A stretch of 64,000 bases of DNA, taken from a plasmid. Positions 2,189-46,968 of this stretch are shown one piece after another. Where the stretch lies: the NCBI RefSeq assembly GCF_053078305.1, contig NZ_CP166875.1; one strand, given 5' to 3'. The position numbers were made by a program, and so were the translations under genes. Under the pieces are notes generated by a model. That model was not told where the DNA came from. It searched no databases and saw nothing but the letters and a program-made list of their open reading frames with translations. Each line of letters opens with the position of its first letter. Position 1 is the stretch's first letter.

Positions 2189-4469
2189 TCCTGACCTCAT
2201 ACACCGCACGGCCTGGGGAAACCCGCTGTGGAATGCACTGCATAACCTGAACATCATTGGTCTGTGTCTGGCCGGCAGTATCATTACGGCCCTGATATGG
2301 CCACTGGCCCTTCCTGTCTGTCTGCTGTTCACCCTGGTCACCTCCGTGATATTCACGCTGCAACGCTGGCGATGCCCCCTGCGTATGCCCATGACGCTCA
2401 GCCTTGATGACCCCTCCCAGGACAGAAAGGTCAGGCGAAGCCTCTTCAGCTTCTGGCCCACCCTGTTTCAGTATGAAGCAGATGAAACATCCCCCGCACG
2501 GGGGATTTTTTATGTCGGTTACCGCCGTATCAATGATATCGGTCGTGAGCTCTGGCTGAGCATGGATGACCTCACCCGGCATGTCATGTTTTTTGCCACC
2601 ACCGGTGGCGGTAAAACAGAAACCACCTTTGCCTGGCTGCTCAACCCGCTCTGCTGGGGAAGAGGCTTTACCTTTGTTGACGGAAAGGCACAGAACGATA
2701 CCACGAGGACAATCTGGTATCTCTCCCGACGTTTTGGCAGGGAGGATGATATCGAGGTCATCAACTTCATGAACGGCGGAAAATCCCGCAGCGAAATCAT
2801 TCAGAGTGGCGATAAATCCCGCCCACAGTCAAACACCTGGAACCCGTTCGCATTCAGCACCGAAGCCTTCACCGCCGAAACCATGCAGTCCATGCTGCCC
2901 CAGAACGTTCAGGGCGGTGAATGGCAGTCACGGGCGATAGCCATGAACAAGGCACTGGTCTTTGGCACAAAATTCTGGTGCGTCCGGGAAGGTAAAACCA
3001 TGTCCCTGCAGATGTTACGGGAACATATGACGCTGGAAGGGATGGCAAAACTCTATTGCCGTGGCCTTGATGACCAGTGGCCGGAAGAAGCCATCGCACC
3101 ACTGCGAAACTACCTGCAGGATGTCCCGGGATTCGATATGTCACTGGTGAGAACGCCGTCAGCCTGGACTGAGGAGCCCCGTAAACAGCATGCTTATCTC
3201 TCCGGTCAGTTCTCGGAAACGTTCACAACCTTTGCCGAAACCTTCGGGGACGTCTTTGCGGCAGATGCCGGCGACATCGATATTCGCGACAGTATTCACA
3301 GCGACCGCATTCTGATTGTGATGATCCCTGCACTGGACACATCGGCCCATACCACGTCGGCACTCGGTCGTATGTTCGTCACCCAGCAGAGCATGATCCT
3401 CGCCCGTGACCTGGGCTACCGCCTGGAAGGCACAGATGCACAGACCCTGGAAGTCAAAAAATACAAAGGCAGCTTCCCCTATATCTGTATCCTTGACGAA
3501 GTCGGTGCCTACTACACAGACCGCATTGCTGTGGAGGCCACCCAGGTACGTTCACTGGAGTTTTCCCTGATAATGATGGCGCAGGATCAGGAGCGAATTG
3601 AAGGGCAGACCTCCGCCACCAACACCGCCACACTGATGCAGAACGCCGGCACCAAATTCGCCGGACGCATTGTCAGTGACGACAAAACGGCAAGAACGGT
3701 GAAAAATGCCGCCGGTGAAGAGGCACGGGCCAGAATGGGCAGCCTGCAGCGCCACGATGGTGTGATGGGTGAGTCCTGGGTGGACGGTAACCAGATCACC
3801 ATCCAGATGGAAAGCAAAATCGACGTGCAGGATTTGATCAGACTGAATGCCGGTGAGTTCTTTACCGTTTTCCAGGGGGATGTGGTGCCGTCAGCCTCTG
3901 TGTATATTCCGGACAGCGAGAAAAGTTGCGACAGTGATCCGGTGGTCATCAACCGCTATATTTCCGTTGAAGCCCCCCGGCTGGAGCGTCTCCGCCGTCT
4001 CGTCCCCAGGACAGTGCAGCGCAGGCTCCCCACACCGGAGCATGTCAGCAGCATCATCGGTGTACTGACAGCAAAACCATCCCGTAAACGTCGTAAAAAC
4101 CGTACAGAGCCTTACCGTATCATTGATACATTCCAGCGCCGGTTGGCAACAGCGCAGACATCACTGGATCTGCTTCCGCAATATGATACAGATATCGAAT
4201 CCCGGGCAAACGAACTGTGGAAAAAGGCTGTGCACACTATCAATAACACAACCTGGGAAGAACGCCGGGTATGTTATATCACACTGAATCGTCCGGAAGA
4301 GGAACACTCCGGTCCTGAAGATATACCTTCAGTAAAGGCGATTCTGAATACCCTGCTCCCCCTGGAGATACTGTTACCGGTCGCTGAAAATAATAAATCG
4401 CAGACAATAAATAATGATCATCCCCAGAAATCATGTGGAGCACAACCAACAACTGACGAAAAATACTGA
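2169..4469 (+). CDS. trbC: Type IV coupling protein (TrbC-like, VirD4/TraG-type ATPase)
   Basis: N-terminal transmembrane helices, Walker A (ATTGGGKTET) and Walker B-like (ICILDEVG); 766 aa; adjacent to relaxase operon. Confidence 0.6.
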   Translation: MSQHHVNPDLIHRTAWGNPLWNALHNLNIIGLCLAGSIITALIWPLALPVCLLFTLVTSVIFTLQRWRCPLRMPMTLSLDDPSQDRKVRRSLFSFWPTLFQYEADETSPARGIFYVGYRRINDIGRELWLSMDDLTRHVMFFATTGGGKTETTFAWLLNPLCWGRGFTFVDGKAQNDTTRTIWYLSRRFGREDDIEVINFMNGGKSRSEIIQSGDKSRPQSNTWNPFAFSTEAFTAETMQSMLPQNVQGGEWQSRAIAMNKALVFGTKFWCVREGKTMSLQMLREHMTLEGMAKLYCRGLDDQWPEEAIAPLRNYLQDVPGFDMSLVRTPSAWTEEPRKQHAYLSGQFSETFTTFAETFGDVFAADAGDIDIRDSIHSDRILIVMIPALDTSAHTTSALGRMFVTQQSMILARDLGYRLEGTDAQTLEVKKYKGSFPYICILDEVGAYYTDRIAVEATQVRSLEFSLIMMAQDQERIEGQTSATNTATLMQNAGTKFAGRIVSDDKTARTVKNAAGEEARARMGSLQRHDGVMGESWVDGNQITIQMESKIDVQDLIRLNAGEFFTVFQGDVVPSASVYIPDSEKSCDSDPVVINRYISVEAPRLERLRRLVPRTVQRRLPTPEHVSSIIGVLTAKPSRKRRKNRTEPYRIIDTFQRRLATAQTSLDLLPQYDTDIESRANELWKKAVHTINNTTWEERRVCYITLNRPEEEHSGPEDIPSVKAILNTLLPLEILLPVAENNKSQTINNDHPQKSCGAQPTTDEKY

Positions 4470-22183: not shown

Positions 22184-22635
22184 TAATACCCCGACAAGAT
22201 TAAATTCTGGTTAACGATATCATTATACAGCGAATAATATAATTATGGTTCACGTATTATTATCCGTGACTCTTTCCTGGTAACTCCCGCATAATAACTT
22301 CACTTTTCCAGTATTCCAGAAGATGATGTTTTTTCCTCGATAATAAAAATGTGCCAATATGGAAATAAGAAATCGGATTTTTTATCAGCATACGCAAATT
22401 TTCAGATAACAATGAATACAGATGTATTTTATATACACAGATAAAACCGCGCAACAGACATAAATATGACAGTAGCATGAAAAAGCAGAGAGAGACAGGG
22501 TGATACAGAAAAGTAACTATTTTTTTAGCTATAGTATTATTGGTTTTACCTATTTTCGTGATTGTGTTTCTGTATATTGGGGGTTCGCGCCCATTTCCTC
22601 TAAAAGTCTCACCTTGCTTAGGTAATTAATTGAAT

Positions 22636-23217
22636 TTATTTATAAAACGTTGCAATTTTAGCATCATTTTTTATTGTTCTTTTTAACCTGAAGTACGTCG
22701 ATCGAGAGATACCTGTTTTTTCTGTCACACTGCCCAGAGATTCTCCCTGTGATATAAGCTCCAACGCTGTAGGCGTTCGTGGATGCTTCTTCCTGCCAAA
22801 TTTTACGCCTGCGGCAAGTGCCGCTATTCTTCCGTCGTTTGTCCGCTCCAGAATACGCTCACGTTCCGCTTCAGCTACAGCAGCAAGGATTTGGATAACC
22901 ATTTTGCCCATTGTCCCTTCTGTACTGAGACCGTTCTCCAGGAACCGGATGGCGATCCCCTTTTTGTAACAGCTATCAACCACACGAATCATGTCAGCAG
23001 TGTTACGCCCCAGTCGGTCCATTTTTGTACAGATGATTACGTCGTCTTTCTCTGCACGGGCCAACAACCGCTGTAGTCCTTCCCGTTCATCAGTTGCGCC
23101 AGTCATCATATCCGTAAAAATACGATCTTCCCGTACCCCGGCATTTTTTAGCTCCGAGATTTGATGTGTTAGCTTCTGATGACTGGTTGATACCCGTGCA
23201 TACCCCAATAACGCCAT
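22636..23217 (-). CDS. tnpR: Serine recombinase / resolvase
   Basis: N-terminal catalytic serine motif (GYARVSTSHQ), C-terminal HTH; divergent from the transposase gene. Confidence 0.85.
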   Translation of the reverse strand: MALLGYARVSTSHQKLTHQISELKNAGVREDRIFTDMMTGATDEREGLQRLLARAEKDDVIICTKMDRLGRNTADMIRVVDSCYKKGIAIRFLENGLSTEGTMGKMVIQILAAVAEAERERILERTNDGRIAALAAGVKFGRKKHPRTPTALELISQGESLGSVTEKTGISRSTYFRLKRTIKNDAKIATFYK

Positions 23218-23373
23218 TTTTAGTCTCACTTATCGTTTTTGACACTGCATGGTATCATAATGTACAAAATACGATTTTTGAAACCTGCTTTTATGCTGTT
23301 TTAGACAGGTATCAGATATCTTAATATTTGATACTAGCCATATTTAACAAATATTTAGCATTTTGGTAAATGT

Positions 23374-26300
23374 ATGCAGAAGTACAAGAAAAGAATTAGT
23401 ATATTAACAAAAAGTGAAATAAATGAATTATATCAAGTCCCCTCTTTTAATCCTGTTGAAAGGGATGAGTTTTTTTCGCTGGATATCAGCCTTAAAAGAG
23501 AAATTGATAAAATAATAAATATAGAAAGCAGGGTGTATCTGATATTAATAACAGGGTATTTCAGATATAAACCTGTGATTCCTGAATTTACATTAAAAGA
23601 CGTAAAAAGGGATGTGAAATATATTATCCAGACATATTATAAAAACGAAAGTACTAATCTCAATTTAAACATACCTAAAAGTACAAAGTACCGCCTTGTT
23701 AAACGAATGCTTTCTACTCTAGGATTTGAACAACTCACCCCATCTATAAAAAATGAGTTAAGTGAACGTCTGAATGATGTTGCTACTATATGTATGGAAC
23801 CAAAATATATTTTTGATGAATTACTTGCTTTTTTAGGACAGCGGCGTATAGCTCTTCCTGGATACAGTACTGTCCAGAACCTCGTTTCAGATGCTTTAAA
23901 CTTTGAAAGGAAAAGGACAATTAATATTTTGTCAAAGAGAATTTATCCTGCCACTGCACAAAAGATTACATCCATCATCCATGATGATGGAATATTAAAT
24001 TCCATCAGGGGATATAATTATAGCACGAGAGACTTCTCAGCATCAGAAATAGAAAATGAATTAAGAACTCACAATGTGATAAGTAGTATTTACTATGAAA
24101 TAAAAGATATAATTAATTCATTAGGTATATCCCAGGGAAACATGGAGTACTATGCAACTATCGTAAAACACAGTACAACATTCAGACTTAAGCGACACCC
24201 TAAATGGCAAGGAATACTTTATTTGTGCTGCTACTTGTACTTCAGATACAGAGAGATAAATGATAAAATAATCACAGCCTTCAGATATTTAGTAAAAAAA
24301 CATAAAGACGCTTCAGTTTTGTTTGCAAAAGCTCGGGCAACAGAGGAAATAGATCTAATAAATAAAAAGCTTAAGTTTGCGAGTAAAATATTTAACTTCT
24401 TCGTTGATAGTAACATTGAAGACAGCATCCCTTTTGGATATGTTCGTGAAAAGGTTTTTTCACTTATATCGAAAGATGATATGCATCTTGTGAGTGAATT
24501 TTTTGACAAAAATAAAATCGATGTAATTGAATATCAATGGCAGTATATTGACAGCCATCACCTTAAGATCGCCAATTCAATCCGAAAGCTTTTTCTGGCT
24601 ATAGATATAGTATATGACAACGAGAAGTCTGTTATTGGCCAGCAAATTACTGCTGCCAAGGATGATCTCAGAGGAAAAGGAAAGCTGGATGCTAAGGATC
24701 TGAGGGTAATTCATCCATCCGAGAAAAATTACATTGTAAAAGAAGGAGAAATTAACACTCAACGATTCGAATTTCATATGTACAGCAGGGTATCTAACCA
24801 TCTGGAAAACGGTGTCTTTTATGCTGCGGAGAGTGAACAAAACAAGAGACTGGAAGATGATCTCATAGAACGAAGTTACTGGCATAAGAATAAATCGATT
24901 TTGATAGAGAAAACAGGCCTTGAACGACTTATCACACCAATAACGCAGACTCTTAATGAGCTGGAGAATACCTTTAGCGATAAACTGGCTCGTATAACCA
25001 TTGGAATAAACTCAGATGCTAATGAGTTTGTGAAAAAACAACCACACTCCAACAGATTACAGTGGAGTCTGGCCAGTAAAAAATGGAAGACCAGCATCGA
25101 TAATCCGATTTACAATCAGATAAAAAATATCGGAATAGTTGACGTAATGAAGTATGTAAACAATGAGACGAATTTTTTGTCTGTGTTTAATGCCATATCA
25201 TCCAGGAAAAATAATCTTGAAGCTGACTATAATGACCTTCTTGCCTGTATATTTGGTAATGGCGCAAATTATGGTGTTCACAGAATGGCATCTGCATCAG
25301 ACCGTAGTATTGGAATACTACGTGATGTGAATGACAAATTCATTCGTCCAGAAACAACAGGAATGGCCAACACAGTAATATCTGATGCAATTGCAAATCT
25401 TTCTGTATATAAATACTGGACGATAAATGAAGATTCTCCATTTGGAAGTGTTGATGGGCAGAAGCACACTTGCAGAATAAATACATTTAAAGCCCGTTAT
25501 TCTGCCAAGTATTTCAGAAAGGGGAAAGGGGTTTCTGCGATGACACTGGTATCTAATCATGTGCCATTATCAACTGTGGTAATTTCTCCAAATGAATATG
25601 AAGGTCATTTTGCATTTGACTTGTTATATAACAACACCAGTGAAATACAACCAAAGTCATTAGCGACTGACAATCATGGTATAAACAACGTTAATTTTGC
25701 GATTCTTGACATTTTTGGCTATCAGTTTTCACCACGTTATGCAAAATTCAAGAAAATATTTAATGAATTATTTGATGTTATACTGGAGAGTGATAAACTC
25801 ATTATAAAACTTAAAAAACAATTTAACTTTAAGCTCATTGAACATGAATGGGAAAACATCCAACATATTATTTGTTCTTTAAGCAGAAAAACAACCATTC
25901 AAAGTACGGTTGTTAAGAAGTTATCTAATACAAAGCGTAGCAACAAGACATTAGCAGCACTTCGGGAGTATGACCGAGTTATAAAATGCATATATGTCCT
26001 GGATTATGCTGACAATAAAACCTTAAGGCAATTTGTGCAACAAGCACTGAACAGAGGTGAAGCTTATCATCAACTAAGAAGAGCAATAGCATCAGTAAAT
26101 GGAAATCAATTTCGCGGTGGTAATGACTACCAAATAGATCAATGGAACGACTGTGCGAGGTTAATAGCTAATTGTGTAATCTATTATAATTCAGCAATAT
26201 TATCCAGGCTGGTCGAGAAATTTGAAAAAGAAAATAATAAAAAAGCGATAGATGTTCTGGCTAACTTATCCCCAGTAGCATGGAGACACATTCTCCTTGG

Positions 26301-26412
26301 AGGGAATTATTCTTTTGAAGATCAAGTTGCGATCACAAATTTGGACAGTCTTTTGGAGGGAGTAGACCCACTAAGTGATATCGGAGATATTGAGTCCGAA
26401 TATGACGGTTAA
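23374..26412 (+). CDS. tnpA: Tn3-family DDE transposase
   Basis: 1012 aa, size and organisation typical of Tn3-family TnpA; AT-rich codon usage unlike the backbone. Confidence 0.8.
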   Translation: MQKYKKRISILTKSEINELYQVPSFNPVERDEFFSLDISLKREIDKIINIESRVYLILITGYFRYKPVIPEFTLKDVKRDVKYIIQTYYKNESTNLNLNIPKSTKYRLVKRMLSTLGFEQLTPSIKNELSERLNDVATICMEPKYIFDELLAFLGQRRIALPGYSTVQNLVSDALNFERKRTINILSKRIYPATAQKITSIIHDDGILNSIRGYNYSTRDFSASEIENELRTHNVISSIYYEIKDIINSLGISQGNMEYYATIVKHSTTFRLKRHPKWQGILYLCCYLYFRYREINDKIITAFRYLVKKHKDASVLFAKARATEEIDLINKKLKFASKIFNFFVDSNIEDSIPFGYVREKVFSLISKDDMHLVSEFFDKNKIDVIEYQWQYIDSHHLKIANSIRKLFLAIDIVYDNEKSVIGQQITAAKDDLRGKGKLDAKDLRVIHPSEKNYIVKEGEINTQRFEFHMYSRVSNHLENGVFYAAESEQNKRLEDDLIERSYWHKNKSILIEKTGLERLITPITQTLNELENTFSDKLARITIGINSDANEFVKKQPHSNRLQWSLASKKWKTSIDNPIYNQIKNIGIVDVMKYVNNETNFLSVFNAISSRKNNLEADYNDLLACIFGNGANYGVHRMASASDRSIGILRDVNDKFIRPETTGMANTVISDAIANLSVYKYWTINEDSPFGSVDGQKHTCRINTFKARYSAKYFRKGKGVSAMTLVSNHVPLSTVVISPNEYEGHFAFDLLYNNTSEIQPKSLATDNHGINNVNFAILDIFGYQFSPRYAKFKKIFNELFDVILESDKLIIKLKKQFNFKLIEHEWENIQHIICSLSRKTTIQSTVVKKLSNTKRSNKTLAALREYDRVIKCIYVLDYADNKTLRQFVQQALNRGEAYHQLRRAIASVNGNQFRGGNDYQIDQWNDCARLIANCVIYYNSAILSRLVEKFEKENNKKAIDVLANLSPVAWRHILLGGNYSFEDQVAITNLDSLLEGVDPLSDIGDIESEYDG

Positions 26413-26478
26413 CAACATGATAAATAATGGTTTTTATGCTAAGAGTGAGACTTTTGGAGGAAATGGGCGCAGAACCCC

Positions 26479-34694: not shown

Positions 34695-35120
34695 TCAGTC
34701 CAGTGCCGCGTAAATCGCGTTACATTCGGGGTGAAATTCGATGTGGCTCCACAACTGCGCATCGCGCATCCGGTAAAGCTGGGTCAGTCCTGCATCCCCG
34801 CTGTCGTGGTACAGCCACAACTGGCGGTTAATCACAAGGGAAGTCAGGATGATACCTGCGGCATCAGCACTCACAGTGCGGTCAAACCAGTTTTCACCGT
34901 TGACCAGATGAAAACGGTCGCCATCCGGCATCATGTAACCGCCACCGTCCGGCAGGCGGATGAAATGCCAGAAGCCTCCCTGATATTCCGGCATCATTTT
35001 TTGCGCCAGCGCGTACACATACGCCTCGGCATACAGAAAATCGTTGCCAAACAGGTAAGGCAGAAAGGAGAGACGGTCGCACTCTTCAACGTTCAGAGTG
35101 ACAGATTTCGCATACTGCAT
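34695..35120 (-). CDS. Antirestriction protein, KlcA/ArdB family
   Basis: 141 aa from ATG at MQYAKS with RBS ggagg; family assignment from memory; preceded by repeat B2. Confidence 0.6.
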
Positions 35121-35335: not shown

Positions 35336-35746
35336 GCACATTATATTCAGCGCCACATCCGGTAGCCTGCGATATAACACAGTTATCCTGTCAGTAAGAG
35401 CAGGTATGATGAATACACGGAGATTAAAAATATAATCTCCGTCACATGTTACCCCCGGAAACCGGTAACGCCGTCACGGGAAAGACGTGACAGAAAAAGC
35501 AGCCTCCGTTACTCCAGGTATCAGAAGGCTGAATAATGCATGAGACTTTCTTTCTTATGTGTCTGGTCAGGCTGGCTGACCAGCGTTTTTAGTAACACAT
35601 AGCCATATGTGTATTAAGCCACCTCATCTTATTTTGTTGAATTGATCACAATTCAACGGTTTATTTTTGGCGTGATGTGTGAGCCGTTATTCATCCCGGC
35701 ATGGAATTCATGCAATAACGAAAAGTAATCAGTGACGGAGAGTAAA

Positions 35747-36208
35747 ATGAAGAAATATATACCACTGGTATTATTTGTTTTTTCATGTCAGGTATTTTCT
35801 GCTGATATTCATGGACGGGTTGTGCGTGTTCTGGATGGCGATACCATTGACGTTATGTTATCTCAGCATCCGGTGCGTGTCCGTCTTGTTAATATTGATG
35901 CACCTGAAAAGAAACAGGACTATGGCCGGTGGTCTGAAAAAATAATGAAATCTCTGGTTGCGGGAAAAACGGTTACTGTCACATATTTTCAGCGAGATCG
36001 TTATGGTCGTATTCTCGGGCAGGTTTATGCACCAGACGGAATGAATGTTAATCAGTTTATGGTCCGTGCAGGCGCTGCATGGGTTTATGAGCAGTACAAC
36101 ACCGATCCTGTTCTTCCCGTCCTGCAGGGAGAAGCACGACAGCAGAAACGTGGTCTGTGGGCAGACAGCGCTCCTGTTCCGCCCTGGGTATGGCGCTCAC
36201 GGAAATAA
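35747..36208 (+). CDS. nuc: Secreted thermonuclease-family (SNase-like) endonuclease
   Basis: Signal peptide (MKKYIPLVLFVFSCQVFSA), SNase-like motifs; RBS ggagag; AT-rich. Confidence 0.7.
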   Translation: MKKYIPLVLFVFSCQVFSADIHGRVVRVLDGDTIDVMLSQHPVRVRLVNIDAPEKKQDYGRWSEKIMKSLVAGKTVTVTYFQRDRYGRILGQVYAPDGMNVNQFMVRAGAAWVYEQYNTDPVLPVLQGEARQQKRGLWADSAPVPPWVWRSRK

Positions 36209-36295
36209 TGATATTTCTGTGGCTATTGAGTTCTCATTGAAATGCGATATTTAAAAGTATGAAGCATATTACATTATTAACTTATTTCTCTGTTA

Positions 36296-36694
36296 ATGAA
36301 AGGTGAACAAATGAACTATCAGGCAGTATCAGAATTAATCACATCGTCTAATCATAATGTTCTTATTGTGGGGGACTCAGCTTCTGAAGTTGATAGCTTT
36401 TTAAATAAACTGAATATTACTGATTATAAGTATTATGATTTCAGCCAGATTTACAGTTGTTCTGACAGAACATTAAATGATTATGCGGTTATTTTTATCA
36501 GGGATGCACTGAACGCCAGTGAGCATATTATTATTTTTAATTGTACAGGATGGCCTGATTTGAATAATGAATCTGCCGTCATGCAGTTTGCCAGAGTGGC
36601 ACGAAAATCAGGAAAACAACTGATAGTCGCAGTAAGAGAACAGGATATGAAAAAAATGGAAGCAGAGTTTGGAAGGATCATAAAAATCCACTGA
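36296..36694 (+). CDS. Hypothetical AT-rich protein
   Basis: 132 aa ORF; no recognised domain. Confidence 0.35.
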   Translation: MKGEQMNYQAVSELITSSNHNVLIVGDSASEVDSFLNKLNITDYKYYDFSQIYSCSDRTLNDYAVIFIRDALNASEHIIIFNCTGWPDLNNESAVMQFARVARKSGKQLIVAVREQDMKKMEAEFGRIIKIH

Positions 36695-36973
36695 CGCCTT
36701 CGCGTTGCTCAGTTGTCCAACCCCGGGGACGGGAAAAAGCAAGTTTTCCCCGCCCCCGGCGTTTCTGTAGTGAAAAGCGGGAAATGGAGGGAATGGTCAG
36801 TAACAGGGAATGTGGTATTATCGCGGCGGGTGTCTGAGCCTTTCTGGTTCAGGCAAGACGCAGGTACTAGAAATGCGAAGACCCCACTTGTTAATCCATT
36901 AACTCGTGAGGCCTGCATGAAGTACTTGAACACTACTGATTGTAGCCTCTTCCTTGCAGAGAGGTCAAAGTTT

Positions 36974-37123
36974 ATGACGAAATATGCCCTTATCGGGTTG
37001 CTCGCCGTGTGCGCCACGGTGTTGTGTTTTTCACTGATATTCAGGGAACGGTTATGTGAGCTGAATATTCACAGGGGAAATACAGTGGTGCAGGTAACTC
37101 TGGCCTACGAAGCACGGAAGTAA
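36974..37123 (+). CDS. srnB: Hok/Gef-family type I toxin (SrnB/PndA-like)
   Basis: 49 aa MTKYALIGLLAVCATVLCFSLIFRERLCELNIHRGNTVVQVTLAYEARK; leader ORF starts at about 36917. Confidence 0.75.
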   Translation: MTKYALIGLLAVCATVLCFSLIFRERLCELNIHRGNTVVQVTLAYEARK

Positions 37124-37406: not shown

Positions 37407-37667
37407 ATGTCGCAGACAGAAAATGCAGTGACTTCCTCATTGAGTCAAAAGCGGTTTGTGCGCAGAGGTAAGCCTATGACTGACTCTGAGAAACAAATGG
37501 CCGCTGTTGCAAGAAAACGTCTTACACACAAAGAGATAAAAGTTTTTGTCAAAAATCCTCTGAAAGATCTCATGGTTGAGTACTGCGAGAGAGAGGGGAT
37601 AACACAGGCTCAGTTCGTTGAGAAAATCATCAAAGATGAACTGCAGAGACTGGATATACTAAAGTAA
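37407..37667 (+). CDS. copB: IncFII replication regulator CopB (RepA2)
   Basis: 86 aa with the recognised RepA2 sequence ([23 protein letters not shown]...). Confidence 0.85.
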
Positions 37668-43068: not shown

Positions 43069-43125
43069 GGGGGTTCGCGCCCATTTCCTCTAAAAGTCTC
43101 ACCTTGCTTAGGTAATTAATTGAAT

Positions 43126-43707
43126 TTATTTATAAAACGTTGCAATTTTAGCATCATTTTTTATTGTTCTTTTTAACCTGAAGTACGTCGATCGAGAGAT
43201 ACCTGTTTTTTCTGTCACACTGCCCAGAGATTCTCCCTGTGATATAAGCTCCAACGCTGTAGGCGTTCGTGGATGCTTCTTCCTGCCAAATTTTACGCCT
43301 GCGGCAAGTGCCGCTATTCTTCCGTCGTTTGTCCGCTCCAGAATACGCTCACGTTCCGCTTCAGCTACAGCAGCAAGGATTTGGATAACCATTTTGCCCA
43401 TTGTCCCTTCTGTACTGAGACCGTTCTCCAGGAACCGGATGGCGATCCCCTTTTTGTAACAGCTATCAACCACACGAATCATGTCAGCAGTGTTACGCCC
43501 CAGTCGGTCCATTTTTGTACAGATGATTACGTCGTCTTTCTCTGCACGGGCCAACAACCGCTGTAGTCCTTCCCGTTCATCAGTTGCGCCAGTCATCATA
43601 TCCGTAAAAATACGATCTTCCCGTACCCCGGCATTTTTTAGCTCCGAGATTTGATGTGTTAGCTTCTGATGACTGGTTGATACCCGTGCATACCCCAATA
43701 ACGCCAT
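43126..43707 (-). CDS. tnpR: Serine recombinase / resolvase (copy 2)
   Basis: Identical to 22636-23217. Confidence 0.85.
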   Translation of the reverse strand: MALLGYARVSTSHQKLTHQISELKNAGVREDRIFTDMMTGATDEREGLQRLLARAEKDDVIICTKMDRLGRNTADMIRVVDSCYKKGIAIRFLENGLSTEGTMGKMVIQILAAVAEAERERILERTNDGRIAALAAGVKFGRKKHPRTPTALELISQGESLGSVTEKTGISRSTYFRLKRTIKNDAKIATFYK

Positions 43708-43863
43708 TTTTAGTCTCACTTATCGTTTTTGACACTGCATGGTATCATAATGTACAAAATACGATTTTTGAAACCTGCTTTTATGCTGTTTTAGACAGGT
43801 ATCAGATATCTTAATATTTGATACTAGCCATATTTAACAAATATTTAGCATTTTGGTAAATGT

Positions 43864-46800
43864 ATGCAGAAGTACAAGAAAAGAATTAGTATATTAACAA
43901 AAAGTGAAATAAATGAATTATATCAAGTCCCCTCTTTTAATCCTGTTGAAAGGGATGAGTTTTTTTCGCTGGATATCAGCCTTAAAAGAGAAATTGATAA
44001 AATAATAAATATAGAAAGCAGGGTGTATCTGATATTAATAACAGGGTATTTCAGATATAAACCTGTGATTCCTGAATTTACATTAAAAGACGTAAAAAGG
44101 GATGTGAAATATATTATCCAGACATATTATAAAAACGAAAGTACTAATCTCAATTTAAACATACCTAAAAGTACAAAGTACCGCCTTGTTAAACGAATGC
44201 TTTCTACTCTAGGATTTGAACAACTCACCCCATCTATAAAAAATGAGTTAAGTGAACGTCTGAATGATGTTGCTACTATATGTATGGAACCAAAATATAT
44301 TTTTGATGAATTACTTGCTTTTTTAGGACAGCGGCGTATAGCTCTTCCTGGATACAGTACTGTCCAGAACCTCGTTTCAGATGCTTTAAACTTTGAAAGG
44401 AAAAGGACAATTAATATTTTGTCAAAGAGAATTTATCCTGCCACTGCACAAAAGATTACATCCATCATCCATGATGATGGAATATTAAATTCCATCAGGG
44501 GATATAATTATAGCACGAGAGACTTCTCAGCATCAGAAATAGAAAATGAATTAAGAACTCACAATGTGATAAGTAGTATTTACTATGAAATAAAAGATAT
44601 AATTAATTCATTAGGTATATCCCAGGGAAACATGGAGTACTATGCAACTATCGTAAAACACAGTACAACATTCAGACTTAAGCGACACCCTAAATGGCAA
44701 GGAATACTTTATTTGTGCTGCTACTTGTACTTCAGATACAGAGAGATAAATGATAAAATAATCACAGCCTTCAGATATTTAGTAAAAAAACATAAAGACG
44801 CTTCAGTTTTGTTTGCAAAAGCTCGGGCAACAGAGGAAATAGATCTAATAAATAAAAAGCTTAAGTTTGCGAGTAAAATATTTAACTTCTTCGTTGATAG
44901 TAACATTGAAGACAGCATCCCTTTTGGATATGTTCGTGAAAAGGTTTTTTCACTTATATCGAAAGATGATATGCATCTTGTGAGTGAATTTTTTGACAAA
45001 AATAAAATCGATGTAATTGAATATCAATGGCAGTATATTGACAGCCATCACCTTAAGATCGCCAATTCAATCCGAAAGCTTTTTCTGGCTATAGATATAG
45101 TATATGACAACGAGAAGTCTGTTATTGGCCAGCAAATTACTGCTGCCAAGGATGATCTCAGAGGAAAAGGAAAGCTGGATGCTAAGGATCTGAGGGTAAT
45201 TCATCCATCCGAGAAAAATTACATTGTAAAAGAAGGAGAAATTAACACTCAACGATTCGAATTTCATATGTACAGCAGGGTATCTAACCATCTGGAAAAC
45301 GGTGTCTTTTATGCTGCGGAGAGTGAACAAAACAAGAGACTGGAAGATGATCTCATAGAACGAAGTTACTGGCATAAGAATAAATCGATTTTGATAGAGA
45401 AAACAGGCCTTGAACGACTTATCACACCAATAACGCAGACTCTTAATGAGCTGGAGAATACCTTTAGCGATAAACTGGCTCGTATAACCATTGGAATAAA
45501 CTCAGATGCTAATGAGTTTGTGAAAAAACAACCACACTCCAACAGATTACAGTGGAGTCTGGCCAGTAAAAAATGGAAGACCAGCATCGATAATCCGATT
45601 TACAATCAGATAAAAAATATCGGAATAGTTGACGTAATGAAGTATGTAAACAATGAGACGAATTTTTTGTCTGTGTTTAATGCCATATCATCCAGGAAAA
45701 ATAATCTTGAAGCTGACTATAATGACCTTCTTGCCTGTATATTTGGTAATGGCGCAAATTATGGTGTTCACAGAATGGCATCTGCATCAGACCGTAGTAT
45801 TGGAATACTACGTGATGTGAATGACAAATTCATTCGTCCAGAAACAACAGGAATGGCCAACACAGTAATATCTGATGCAATTGCAAATCTTTCTGTATAT
45901 AAATACTGGACGATAAATGAAGATTCTCCATTTGGAAGTGTTGATGGGCAGAAGCACACTTGCAGAATAAATACATTTAAAGCCCGTTATTCTGCCAAGT
46001 ATTTCAGAAAGGGGAAAGGGGTTTCTGCGATGACACTGGTATCTAATCATGTGCCATTATCAACTGTGGTAATTTCTCCAAATGAATATGAAGGTCATTT
46101 TGCATTTGACTTGTTATATAACAACACCAGTGAAATACAACCAAAGTCATTAGCGACTGACAATCATGGTATAAACAACGTTAATTTTGCGATTCTTGAC
46201 ATTTTTGGCTATCAGTTTTCACCACGTTATGCAAAATTCAAGAAAATATTTAATGAATTATTTGATGTTATACTGGAGAGTGATAAACTCATTATAAAAC
46301 TTAAAAAACAATTTAACTTTAAGCTCATTGAACATGAATGGGAAAACATCCAACATATTATTTGTTCTTTAAGCAGAAAAACAACCATTCAAAGTACGGT
46401 TGTTAAGAAGTTATCTAATACAAAGCGTAGCAACAAGACATTAGCAGCACTTCGGGAGTATGACCGAGTTATAAAATGCATATATGTCCTGGATTATGCT
46501 GACAATAAAACCTTAAGGCAATTTGTGCAACAAGCACTGAACAGAGGTGAAGCTTATCATCAACTAAGAAGAGCAATAGCATCAGTAAATGGAAATCAAT
46601 TTCGCGGTGGTAATGACTACCAAATAGATCAATGGAACGACTGTGCGAGGTTAATAGCTAATTGTGTAATCTATTATAATTCAGCAATATTATCCAGGCT
46701 GGTCGAGAAATTTGAAAAAGAAAATAATAAAAAAGCGATAGATGTTCTGGCTAACTTATCCCCAGTAGCATGGAGACACATTCTCCTTGGAGGGAATTAT

Positions 46801-46902
46801 TCTTTTGAAGATCAAGTTGCGATCACAAATTTGGACAGTCTTTTGGAGGGAGTAGACCCACTAAGTGATATCGGAGATATTGAGTCCGAATATGACGGTT
46901 AA
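43864..46902 (+). CDS. tnpA: Tn3-family DDE transposase (copy 2)
   Basis: Identical to 23374-26412. Confidence 0.8.
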   Translation: MQKYKKRISILTKSEINELYQVPSFNPVERDEFFSLDISLKREIDKIINIESRVYLILITGYFRYKPVIPEFTLKDVKRDVKYIIQTYYKNESTNLNLNIPKSTKYRLVKRMLSTLGFEQLTPSIKNELSERLNDVATICMEPKYIFDELLAFLGQRRIALPGYSTVQNLVSDALNFERKRTINILSKRIYPATAQKITSIIHDDGILNSIRGYNYSTRDFSASEIENELRTHNVISSIYYEIKDIINSLGISQGNMEYYATIVKHSTTFRLKRHPKWQGILYLCCYLYFRYREINDKIITAFRYLVKKHKDASVLFAKARATEEIDLINKKLKFASKIFNFFVDSNIEDSIPFGYVREKVFSLISKDDMHLVSEFFDKNKIDVIEYQWQYIDSHHLKIANSIRKLFLAIDIVYDNEKSVIGQQITAAKDDLRGKGKLDAKDLRVIHPSEKNYIVKEGEINTQRFEFHMYSRVSNHLENGVFYAAESEQNKRLEDDLIERSYWHKNKSILIEKTGLERLITPITQTLNELENTFSDKLARITIGINSDANEFVKKQPHSNRLQWSLASKKWKTSIDNPIYNQIKNIGIVDVMKYVNNETNFLSVFNAISSRKNNLEADYNDLLACIFGNGANYGVHRMASASDRSIGILRDVNDKFIRPETTGMANTVISDAIANLSVYKYWTINEDSPFGSVDGQKHTCRINTFKARYSAKYFRKGKGVSAMTLVSNHVPLSTVVISPNEYEGHFAFDLLYNNTSEIQPKSLATDNHGINNVNFAILDIFGYQFSPRYAKFKKIFNELFDVILESDKLIIKLKKQFNFKLIEHEWENIQHIICSLSRKTTIQSTVVKKLSNTKRSNKTLAALREYDRVIKCIYVLDYADNKTLRQFVQQALNRGEAYHQLRRAIASVNGNQFRGGNDYQIDQWNDCARLIANCVIYYNSAILSRLVEKFEKENNKKAIDVLANLSPVAWRHILLGGNYSFEDQVAITNLDSLLEGVDPLSDIGDIESEYDG

Positions 46903-46968
46903 CAACATGATAAATAATGGTTTTTATGCTAAGAGTGAGACTTTTGGAGGAAATGGGCGCAGAACCCC

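Follow-up and report, generated by a model that had tools for sequence, protein, structure and literature searches.

A small gene in an optional slot of IncF plasmids encodes a putative single-domain P-loop protein with degenerate Walker motifs

Between the thermonuclease gene nuc and the hok/sok locus of an IncF plasmid lies a small AT-rich gene whose product is most plausibly explained, with moderate confidence, as a catalytically dead, single-domain P-loop protein that would act by binding only, and whose gene occupies an optional slot of the IncF backbone. We have high confidence in one part of this, that the protein belongs to a family of small plasmid P-loop proteins and carries a dead nucleotide site; a binding-only accessory role is put forward tentatively. 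The stretch of DNA that was analysed, referred to here as the window, is a 64,000-nucleotide segment of plasmid contig NZ_CP166875.1 (RefSeq assembly GCF_053078305.1). The gene and its immediate neighbours are as follows:

35732..36208 (+), nuc, an SNase-family thermonuclease of 158 aa (PF00565, E 1.3e-29) with an N-terminal signal-like sequence
36296..36694 (+), the open reading frame in the form first noted from an ORF listing, 132 aa with an ATG start
36296..36310 (+), in-frame 5′ extension, which holds the SD-like AAAGGTGA for the ATG at 36311 and is probably untranslated
36311..36694 (+), the most likely coding sequence, 127 aa plus stop, the same as RefSeq WP_001109065.1 'hypothetical protein'
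36828-36984, sok antisense RNA (Rfam RF01794)
36977-37123, Hok/Gef open reading frame (PF01848)
37407-37667, copB (RepB-RCR_reg), followed by CopA RNA and the IncFII repA

A sequence-only reading of the window had described a 132 aa open reading frame between nuc and a hok-family locus, and it is present at 36296..36694 on the plus strand, with the identity of its flanks confirmed by the matches to PF00565 and PF01848. Its composition is, as that reading had it, unlike that of the backbone, with a GC content of 0.33 in the interval 36200-36599 compared to 0.50-0.67 in the flanking backbone, and 0.35 for the reading frame itself. The purine-rich region that had been assigned to it also exists, as AAAGGTGA at 36299-36306, but it sits inside the reading frame as first noted, 4 nt ahead of a second ATG at 36311, which it would serve. 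All of the homologues start at the methionine equivalent to 36311 and have a similar purine-rich, SD-like motif a few nucleotides upstream. From the placement of this motif, the homologue starts and the 127-aa form in RefSeq, the true coding sequence is most likely 36311-36694, with a start 15 nt downstream of the ATG first noted.

The reading frame is a genuine protein-coding gene, and a chance open frame is excluded. An open frame of 132 codons is expected by chance at this composition with a probability of about 6e-5 per frame, and the dN/dS ratios, calculated by the Nei-Gojobori method, are 0.19-0.50 among close alleles (which have few changes), 0.22-0.25 against a tandem paralogue (B, see below) and 0.25 against a 54%-identical Citrobacter orthologue, for which dS exceeds 1; pairs that include the nonsense-bearing allele L027 gave alignment artefacts and were ignored. 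The only Rfam matches near the gene are sok, CopA and AS-pc02, none of which overlaps it, and no alternative reading of the region gained support.

The gene had been regarded as unrecognised, and this holds to the extent that scans of curated libraries (Pfam, NCBIfam, PADLOC and PHROGs) with the protein give nothing significant and that public records call it a hypothetical protein. It is not an orphan, however; the remote homology search that the earlier reading had proposed yields small plasmid P-loop ATP-binding proteins as significant relatives, and the homology to a known superfamily, although real, is remote. A word-indexed search of 5.8 billion clusters returned close Enterobacteriaceae relatives only, and an exhaustive phmmer search of 1.8 billion representatives added relatives of about 150 aa at E-values of 2.7e-8 to 9e-4, among them two with intact P-loops, P0041 and P0042 (2.7e-8 and 2.8e-8); tblastn matches to intact-motif proteins have E-values of 1e-12 to 1e-15. 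Profile searches gave 59, then 89 family clusters, without exception from the Enterobacterales, at profile E-values of 1e-30 to 1e-50. These proteins are single-domain, about 125-180 aa long, homologous to the window protein over its whole length, and named in their sources as 'ATP-binding protein', 'YfdA protein' or 'nSTAND3 domain-containing NTPase'. On these alignments the window protein is a member of a small, uncharacterised 'ATP-binding protein / YfdA-like' family of Enterobacterales plasmids. It lacks 15-25 C-terminal residues that most relatives have, and compared to the ATP-competent relatives its C-terminus is shorter by 15-50 residues. The nearest curated family of the relatives is nSTAND3 (PF20720), which 10 of 30 match over about 100 residues (best E 2.8e-6) and for which precomputed matches are present for many relatives; the window protein itself has no match to PF20720 at E-values up to 1.

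Several other matches were set aside. Those to Flavoprotein (E 0.22), Apg7 (E 0.013), an orphan methyltransferase (E 0.006) and phrog_35293 (E 0.28) are noise, and a profile search of the PDB by sequence returned Walker-A-region matches only, plus a spurious STAS match. Literature searches by accession and with yihA/yigB/finO and yfdA/IncI2/R721 found, within the library searched, no reports on the window protein or its intact relatives; the 'yfdA' of an F-plasmid preprint is a different locus, in the leading region.

Alignment to the relatives shows that the protein does have motifs, in a degenerate form, where the sequence-only reading could name none:

36371..36394 (+), Walker A remnant GDSASEVD, residues 21-28, at the junction of strand 1 and helix 1
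36428..36442 (+), signature K-Y-Y-D-F on strand 2, with Y41 and F44 invariant in 30/30 aligned members
36527..36541 (+), Walker B remnant IIIFN, residues 73-77, on strand 3
36599..36634 (+), signature ARKxGK[QR]LIV, from the end of helix 3 to strand 4, taken from family alignments

The sequence GDSASEVD aligns without gaps to GxTGxGK[ST] of the relatives, with the lysine replaced by valine, the serine or threonine by aspartate and the second glycine by glutamate, and IIIFN aligns equally without gaps to hhILD, with aspartate replaced by asparagine. The window protein accordingly matches neither the Walker A pattern GxxxxGK[ST] nor the Walker B pattern hhhh[DE], although Gly21 of the Walker A loop is retained. 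In an alignment of 84 full-length sequences (83 family clusters and the window protein) Walker A is intact in 56, and in no member of the clade found in the nuc-hok slot of IncF plasmids. Since Walker A has lost its lysine and its serine/threonine, and Walker B its aspartate, canonical nucleotide binding or hydrolysis is predicted to have been lost, almost certainly, from the window protein and the IncF clade as a whole. Within a clade whose members are down to about 50% identity, the dead motifs are themselves conserved (G-x-S-[AV]-[ST]-x-[VI]-D and IIFNC), and the dN/dS values of 0.22-0.25 at dS above 1 indicate that the gene persisted under constraint for a long time after catalysis was lost. 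Other parts of the family pattern are kept, under purifying selection. The strand-2 signature, which reads [IV]-P-[DN]-S-K-Y-[YF]-D-F in the relatives, is present, and so is ARKxGKQLIV, in which K102 is invariant in 30/30 sequences and R98 nearly so (at least 90%); a smaller alignment of 14 sequences has R98 and K99 invariant.

Structure prediction, which had also been proposed as a check, gives an AAA+/ASCE fold, again at odds with the view that the protein has no recognisable motif. The AlphaFold2 model built on the family alignment (pLDDT 87.3, pTM 0.83) has the topology helix0-strand1-helix1-strand2-helix2-strand3-helix3-strand4-helix4-strand5, and is a three-layer alpha/beta P-loop fold whose nucleotide site is formed where strand 1 leads through a loop into helix 1. 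The Walker A remnant sits exactly where these two elements meet, and that of Walker B is on strand 3. Foldseek searches against the PDB and against viral models both return the P-loop AAA+/ASCE-type class, with 6-17% sequence identity between the window protein and its structural matches. The model has no helical lid with a sensor 2, the protein ending after strand 5 at residue 127. As modelled, the window protein consists of a single AAA+/STAND-like P-loop domain of minimal size, without a lid and with its nucleotide site destroyed.

Among known systems, the window protein shares with the YfdA-like plasmid family (e.g. P0095, P0102 and P0057) its size class, single domain, signatures and conjugative-plasmid habitat; however, these relatives keep both GxxxxGK[ST] and hhhhD, which the window protein and the IncF clade have lost, and lie inside T4SS or pilus operons, whereas the window gene is in the nuc-hok slot beside the replicon. 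Relative to the AAA+ and STAND cores of NSF-D2, the RFC small subunit, p97, Cdc6/Orc1 and Avs3, the window protein lacks the lid, the winged-helix and sensor domains and also sensor 2, its catalytic motifs are dead and it has no Pfam match. STAND NTPases are multidomain, combining the NTPase with helical or winged-helix and sensor or effector parts, whereas the window protein is one domain of 127 aa. BrxF, the small stand-alone ATPase of BREX, has the same size class and single-domain P-loop architecture, as do other P-loop proteins of about 150 aa, and matches one relative only (P0042) in PADLOC, weakly (E 0.0024) though over most of the domain; the window protein has no PADLOC match to BrxF, and no BREX genes are found nearby. 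Membership of a defence system was rejected, the evidence being limited to mad8 and HerA matches over a short P-loop stretch and to this weak BrxF match of one relative. The resemblance to FlaH and KaiC-like accessory ATPases of type IV filaments is at the level of the fold, and the window gene has no filament-ATPase neighbour. Descent from the VirB11/PilQ (T2SSE) traffic ATPases, an idea that came from Pfam T2SSE matches and a visual resemblance around Walker B, was likewise rejected; hhalign with the family profile aligned 21 Walker A columns only (probability 82%), with no homology to the Asp box, Walker B or His box of the neighbouring VirB11/PilQ.

The family has a consistent genomic setting, in that every relative examined is co-oriented with conjugation genes, either within them or at their border. 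Relatives are found between pilQ and pilR of a thin-pilus operon, between virB2 and virB3/4, downstream of a shufflon recombinase, and between cag12/trbM and topB-hns, where stop and start codons overlap in some cases; the Citrobacter orthologue lies between finO and copB of an IncF-like plasmid. Two locations are common in PLSDB. About 450 plasmids of around 60 kb, which carry a T4SS and a thin pilus and which we take to be IncI2-type, have a relative between the coupling-protein (T4CP) gene and pilN (e.g. loci L029-L031, 7001-7531), and about 280 F-type plasmids have one between traU and trbC (e.g. loci L032-L033, 7001-7465). We note that the T4CP-pilN relatives are often annotated as 'sigma 54-interacting transcriptional regulator', a label that seems wrong for a single-domain P-loop protein of 140-180 aa. 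The window allele shares the co-orientation with transfer genes on those plasmids that retain tra, where it follows finO and nuc. No second family member is found in the window, nor in the tra region of a conjugative plasmid carrying this gene that was checked, and pairing with a family member encoded on the same plasmid is therefore not a general arrangement.

The window itself is from an IncF plasmid in which a leading-region block with psiA, ParB-like, ssb, DUF1380 and klcA-type antirestriction genes on the minus strand is joined at about position 35340 to the segment nuc-ORF-hok/sok-copB-repA, without tra genes between them. Conjugative relatives of this plasmid have the order traI-traX-finO-(small ORF)-nuc-ORF-hok-copB-repA. 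The junction lies between klcA (34695-35117, minus strand) and nuc, and the tra-bearing plasmid pSTEC17_183-a is homologous from 35341 onwards, pointing to loss of the transfer region by deletion or rearrangement at this point. Two direct, 100%-identical copies of a 3,900-bp Tn3-family element, each with a 197-aa resolvase (minus strand) and a 1012-aa DDE_Tnp_Tn3 transposase (plus strand), are present at 22579-26478 and 43069-46968; they bracket a 16.6-kb segment containing psiA, ssb, klcA, nuc, the small gene, hok/sok, copB and repA, and recombination between them would excise this replicon segment. In the AT-rich stretch upstream of nuc there is an Rfam match to AS-pc02, 'Antisense to pHK01_099', at 35428-35570 on the minus strand (61.6 bits, E 2e-13), and terminator-like hairpins are located upstream of nuc at 35563-35583 and 35634-35659 on the plus strand. 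No terminator-like site is predicted between nuc and the small gene, and the two may for this reason be co-transcribed. The 3′ side of the gene has two further features:

36691..36765 (+), a 75-nt linker that starts at the stop codon and is common to IncF plasmids with yihA (DUF2726) in the slot
36721..36759 (+), a GC-rich inverted repeat within the linker (81-nt fold of -28.4 kcal/mol, z -1.9)

The linker is about 96% identical to that of the yihA-bearing plasmids, and by this comparison it marks the 3′ boundary of an exchangeable cassette; its inverted repeat may terminate a nuc-ORF transcript, or may delimit recombination during the exchange of cassettes.

Conservation of the gene in related plasmids is patchy. 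Among 3,993 PLSDB plasmids that match the region, 235 carry the reading frame, and the remainder share sequence only from its stop codon onwards (36689/36691 and beyond), with hha and yihA in its place. It is this replacement, together with the shared linker, that identifies an exchangeable slot. Hha and YihA (DUF2726) have the same slot, between nuc and hok/copB, and the same downstream linker as the window gene, and the window protein has no match to DUF2726 (PF10881); in terms of sequence, the window gene is a positional replacement of hha-yihA and not a homologue. In the common IncF backbone (e.g. L016/L017, about 3167-4004) the slot holds hha, of the haemolysin expression modulator family, and the DUF2726 gene, and we note that this sets it among nucleoid-associated 'stealth' functions, with hha here and topB and an hns-like gene beside relatives elsewhere. 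In complete E. coli genomes the gene occurs in 195 of 5,426, and 199 of its 200 places are on plasmids.

Many of these copies are broken. When 60 of the 198 E. coli records, evenly spaced, were sampled, the match spanned 399 nt, as in the window, in 27, 400 nt in 15 and 398 nt in 13, and was partial in five, such that about half of the sampled copies are partial or have gained or lost one nucleotide. At least four independent lesions were read directly: loss of a G from a run of five, loss of a T at 36385, gain of a T in a run of five, and a nonsense codon. Both runs are intact in the window, as is the gene as a whole:

36370..36374 (+), run of five G, from which one G is deleted in several plasmids (e.g. 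NZ_CP027458.1 and NZ_CP075641.1), giving a frameshift
36492..36496 (+), run of five T, with an extra T in a lineage that also carries paralogue B (NZ_CP051708.1 and NZ_CP032262.1), giving a frameshift

Further internal deletions, truncations and fusions are seen among the protein clusters, and the presence of broken copies on many plasmids shows that the gene is dispensable. On some plasmids a 145-aa tandem paralogue, B (WP_000872609.1), lies directly 3′ of the gene, here designated A, and has the same dead motifs; its clusters contain 588 and 360 member sequences, and one plasmid (L004) carries an A/B chimeric gene. The window has A only. Paralogue B is flanked by direct repeats of about 20 nt, TTCTG..AAAAsCGGGAAATGGwGG (L021/L022/L026, about 2052-2490), of which the window contains a single copy at 36765-36790, consistent with either loss or non-acquisition of B.

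What such a protein might do is constrained by its site, and since canonical nucleotide use is predicted to be lost, action by binding is the mode that we favour. It would be a cytoplasmic, lid-less P-loop domain from a small plasmid family that has ATP-competent members, and would behave, if it works at all, as a pseudo-enzyme that binds a partner without the need for nucleotide. As such it could serve as an adaptor, regulator or competitor for a partner that the ATP-competent relatives engage in plasmid transfer or establishment. Conservation points to two candidate interaction surfaces, the aromatic KYYDF strand 2 and the basic ARKxGK patch. This account is weakened by the frequent lesions, which fit a gene of little current value, by the missing C-terminal residues and by the finding that the tra region of the conjugative plasmid that was checked holds no intact family member. 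The gene could instead be an evolutionary relic, a once-active small plasmid ATPase that is now functionless and of which the window copy is simply not yet broken; we consider this unlikely. The destruction of both Walker A and Walker B, the frequency of off-length or partial copies with independent frameshifts and a nonsense codon, the many truncated or fused protein clusters, the absence of the gene from most IncF plasmids and its shortened C-terminus all argue for decay. However, a relic would not readily account for the conservation of the dead motifs themselves in a clade at about 50% identity, for dN/dS values of 0.22-0.25 over distances at which dS exceeds 1, for the large clusters of an equally dead paralogue B, or for the conserved SD-like motif.

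Three narrower proposals are less probable still. It is improbable that the protein is a decoy, a dead NTPase domain that co-assembles with an ATP-competent target and blocks it. That target could be an intact YfdA-like ATPase encoded by a rival plasmid, in which case the effect would be fertility inhibition, or a STAND/AAA+ immune protein of the host, in which case it would be anti-defence. The retention of family surface motifs with loss of catalysis, the nSTAND3 matches of the relatives and the abundance of intact relatives on co-circulating plasmids, the approximately 450 of about 60 kb and 280 of F type in PLSDB, are all in keeping with it, but there is no match to a PADLOC or anti-defence family, and frequent inactivation argues against strong selection. 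Its location also speaks against it; with the polarity of F-like transfer, anti-defence genes usually cluster in the leading region, whereas this gene is in the part of the plasmid that is the last to reach the recipient. Were it a decoy nonetheless, the IncF plasmid would gain a fertility-inhibition or anti-defence activity, and an arms race, rather than decay, would explain the A/B tandem paralogues, the chimeras and the speed of gain and loss. A functional partnership with nuc, in which the protein would, for instance, act in the cytoplasm to inhibit, chaperone or regulate the exported SNase-type enzyme, is highly improbable. In all E. coli IncF loci examined the gene does follow nuc on the same strand, at a distance of about 100 nt, with no predicted terminator-like site between; however, the common IncF backbone has nuc-hha-yihA without it, nuc remains intact and annotated where the gene is frameshifted, the Citrobacter orthologue has no SNase neighbour, and the wider family adjoins T4SS, pil and topB genes rather than nucleases. 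Each gene occurs without the other, and a Nuc partner or immunity protein was rejected as the main explanation. Finally, an active NTPase or kinase with a non-canonical nucleotide site is extremely improbable. The P-loop fold is retained in a high-confidence model, and Gly21 is kept; against this, the lysine is now valine, the serine or threonine aspartate, the loop glycine glutamate and the Walker B aspartate asparagine, and two acidic residues in a P-loop should repel phosphate.

A dead, binding-only P-loop protein in an optional slot is the reading that we retain, and with it a protein listed as hypothetical on plasmids of a few percent of E. coli, including those of STEC and ExPEC, is given a fold and an evolutionary origin. 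Taken alone the window gene is of modest significance, being optional and often broken. Its relatives are of wider interest, in that they expose a small, uncharacterised family of P-loop proteins of about 150 aa within the transfer operons of several types of conjugative plasmid. If the intact members of this family matter for conjugation, the dead IncF clade would provide a natural pseudo-enzyme control, or a regulator.
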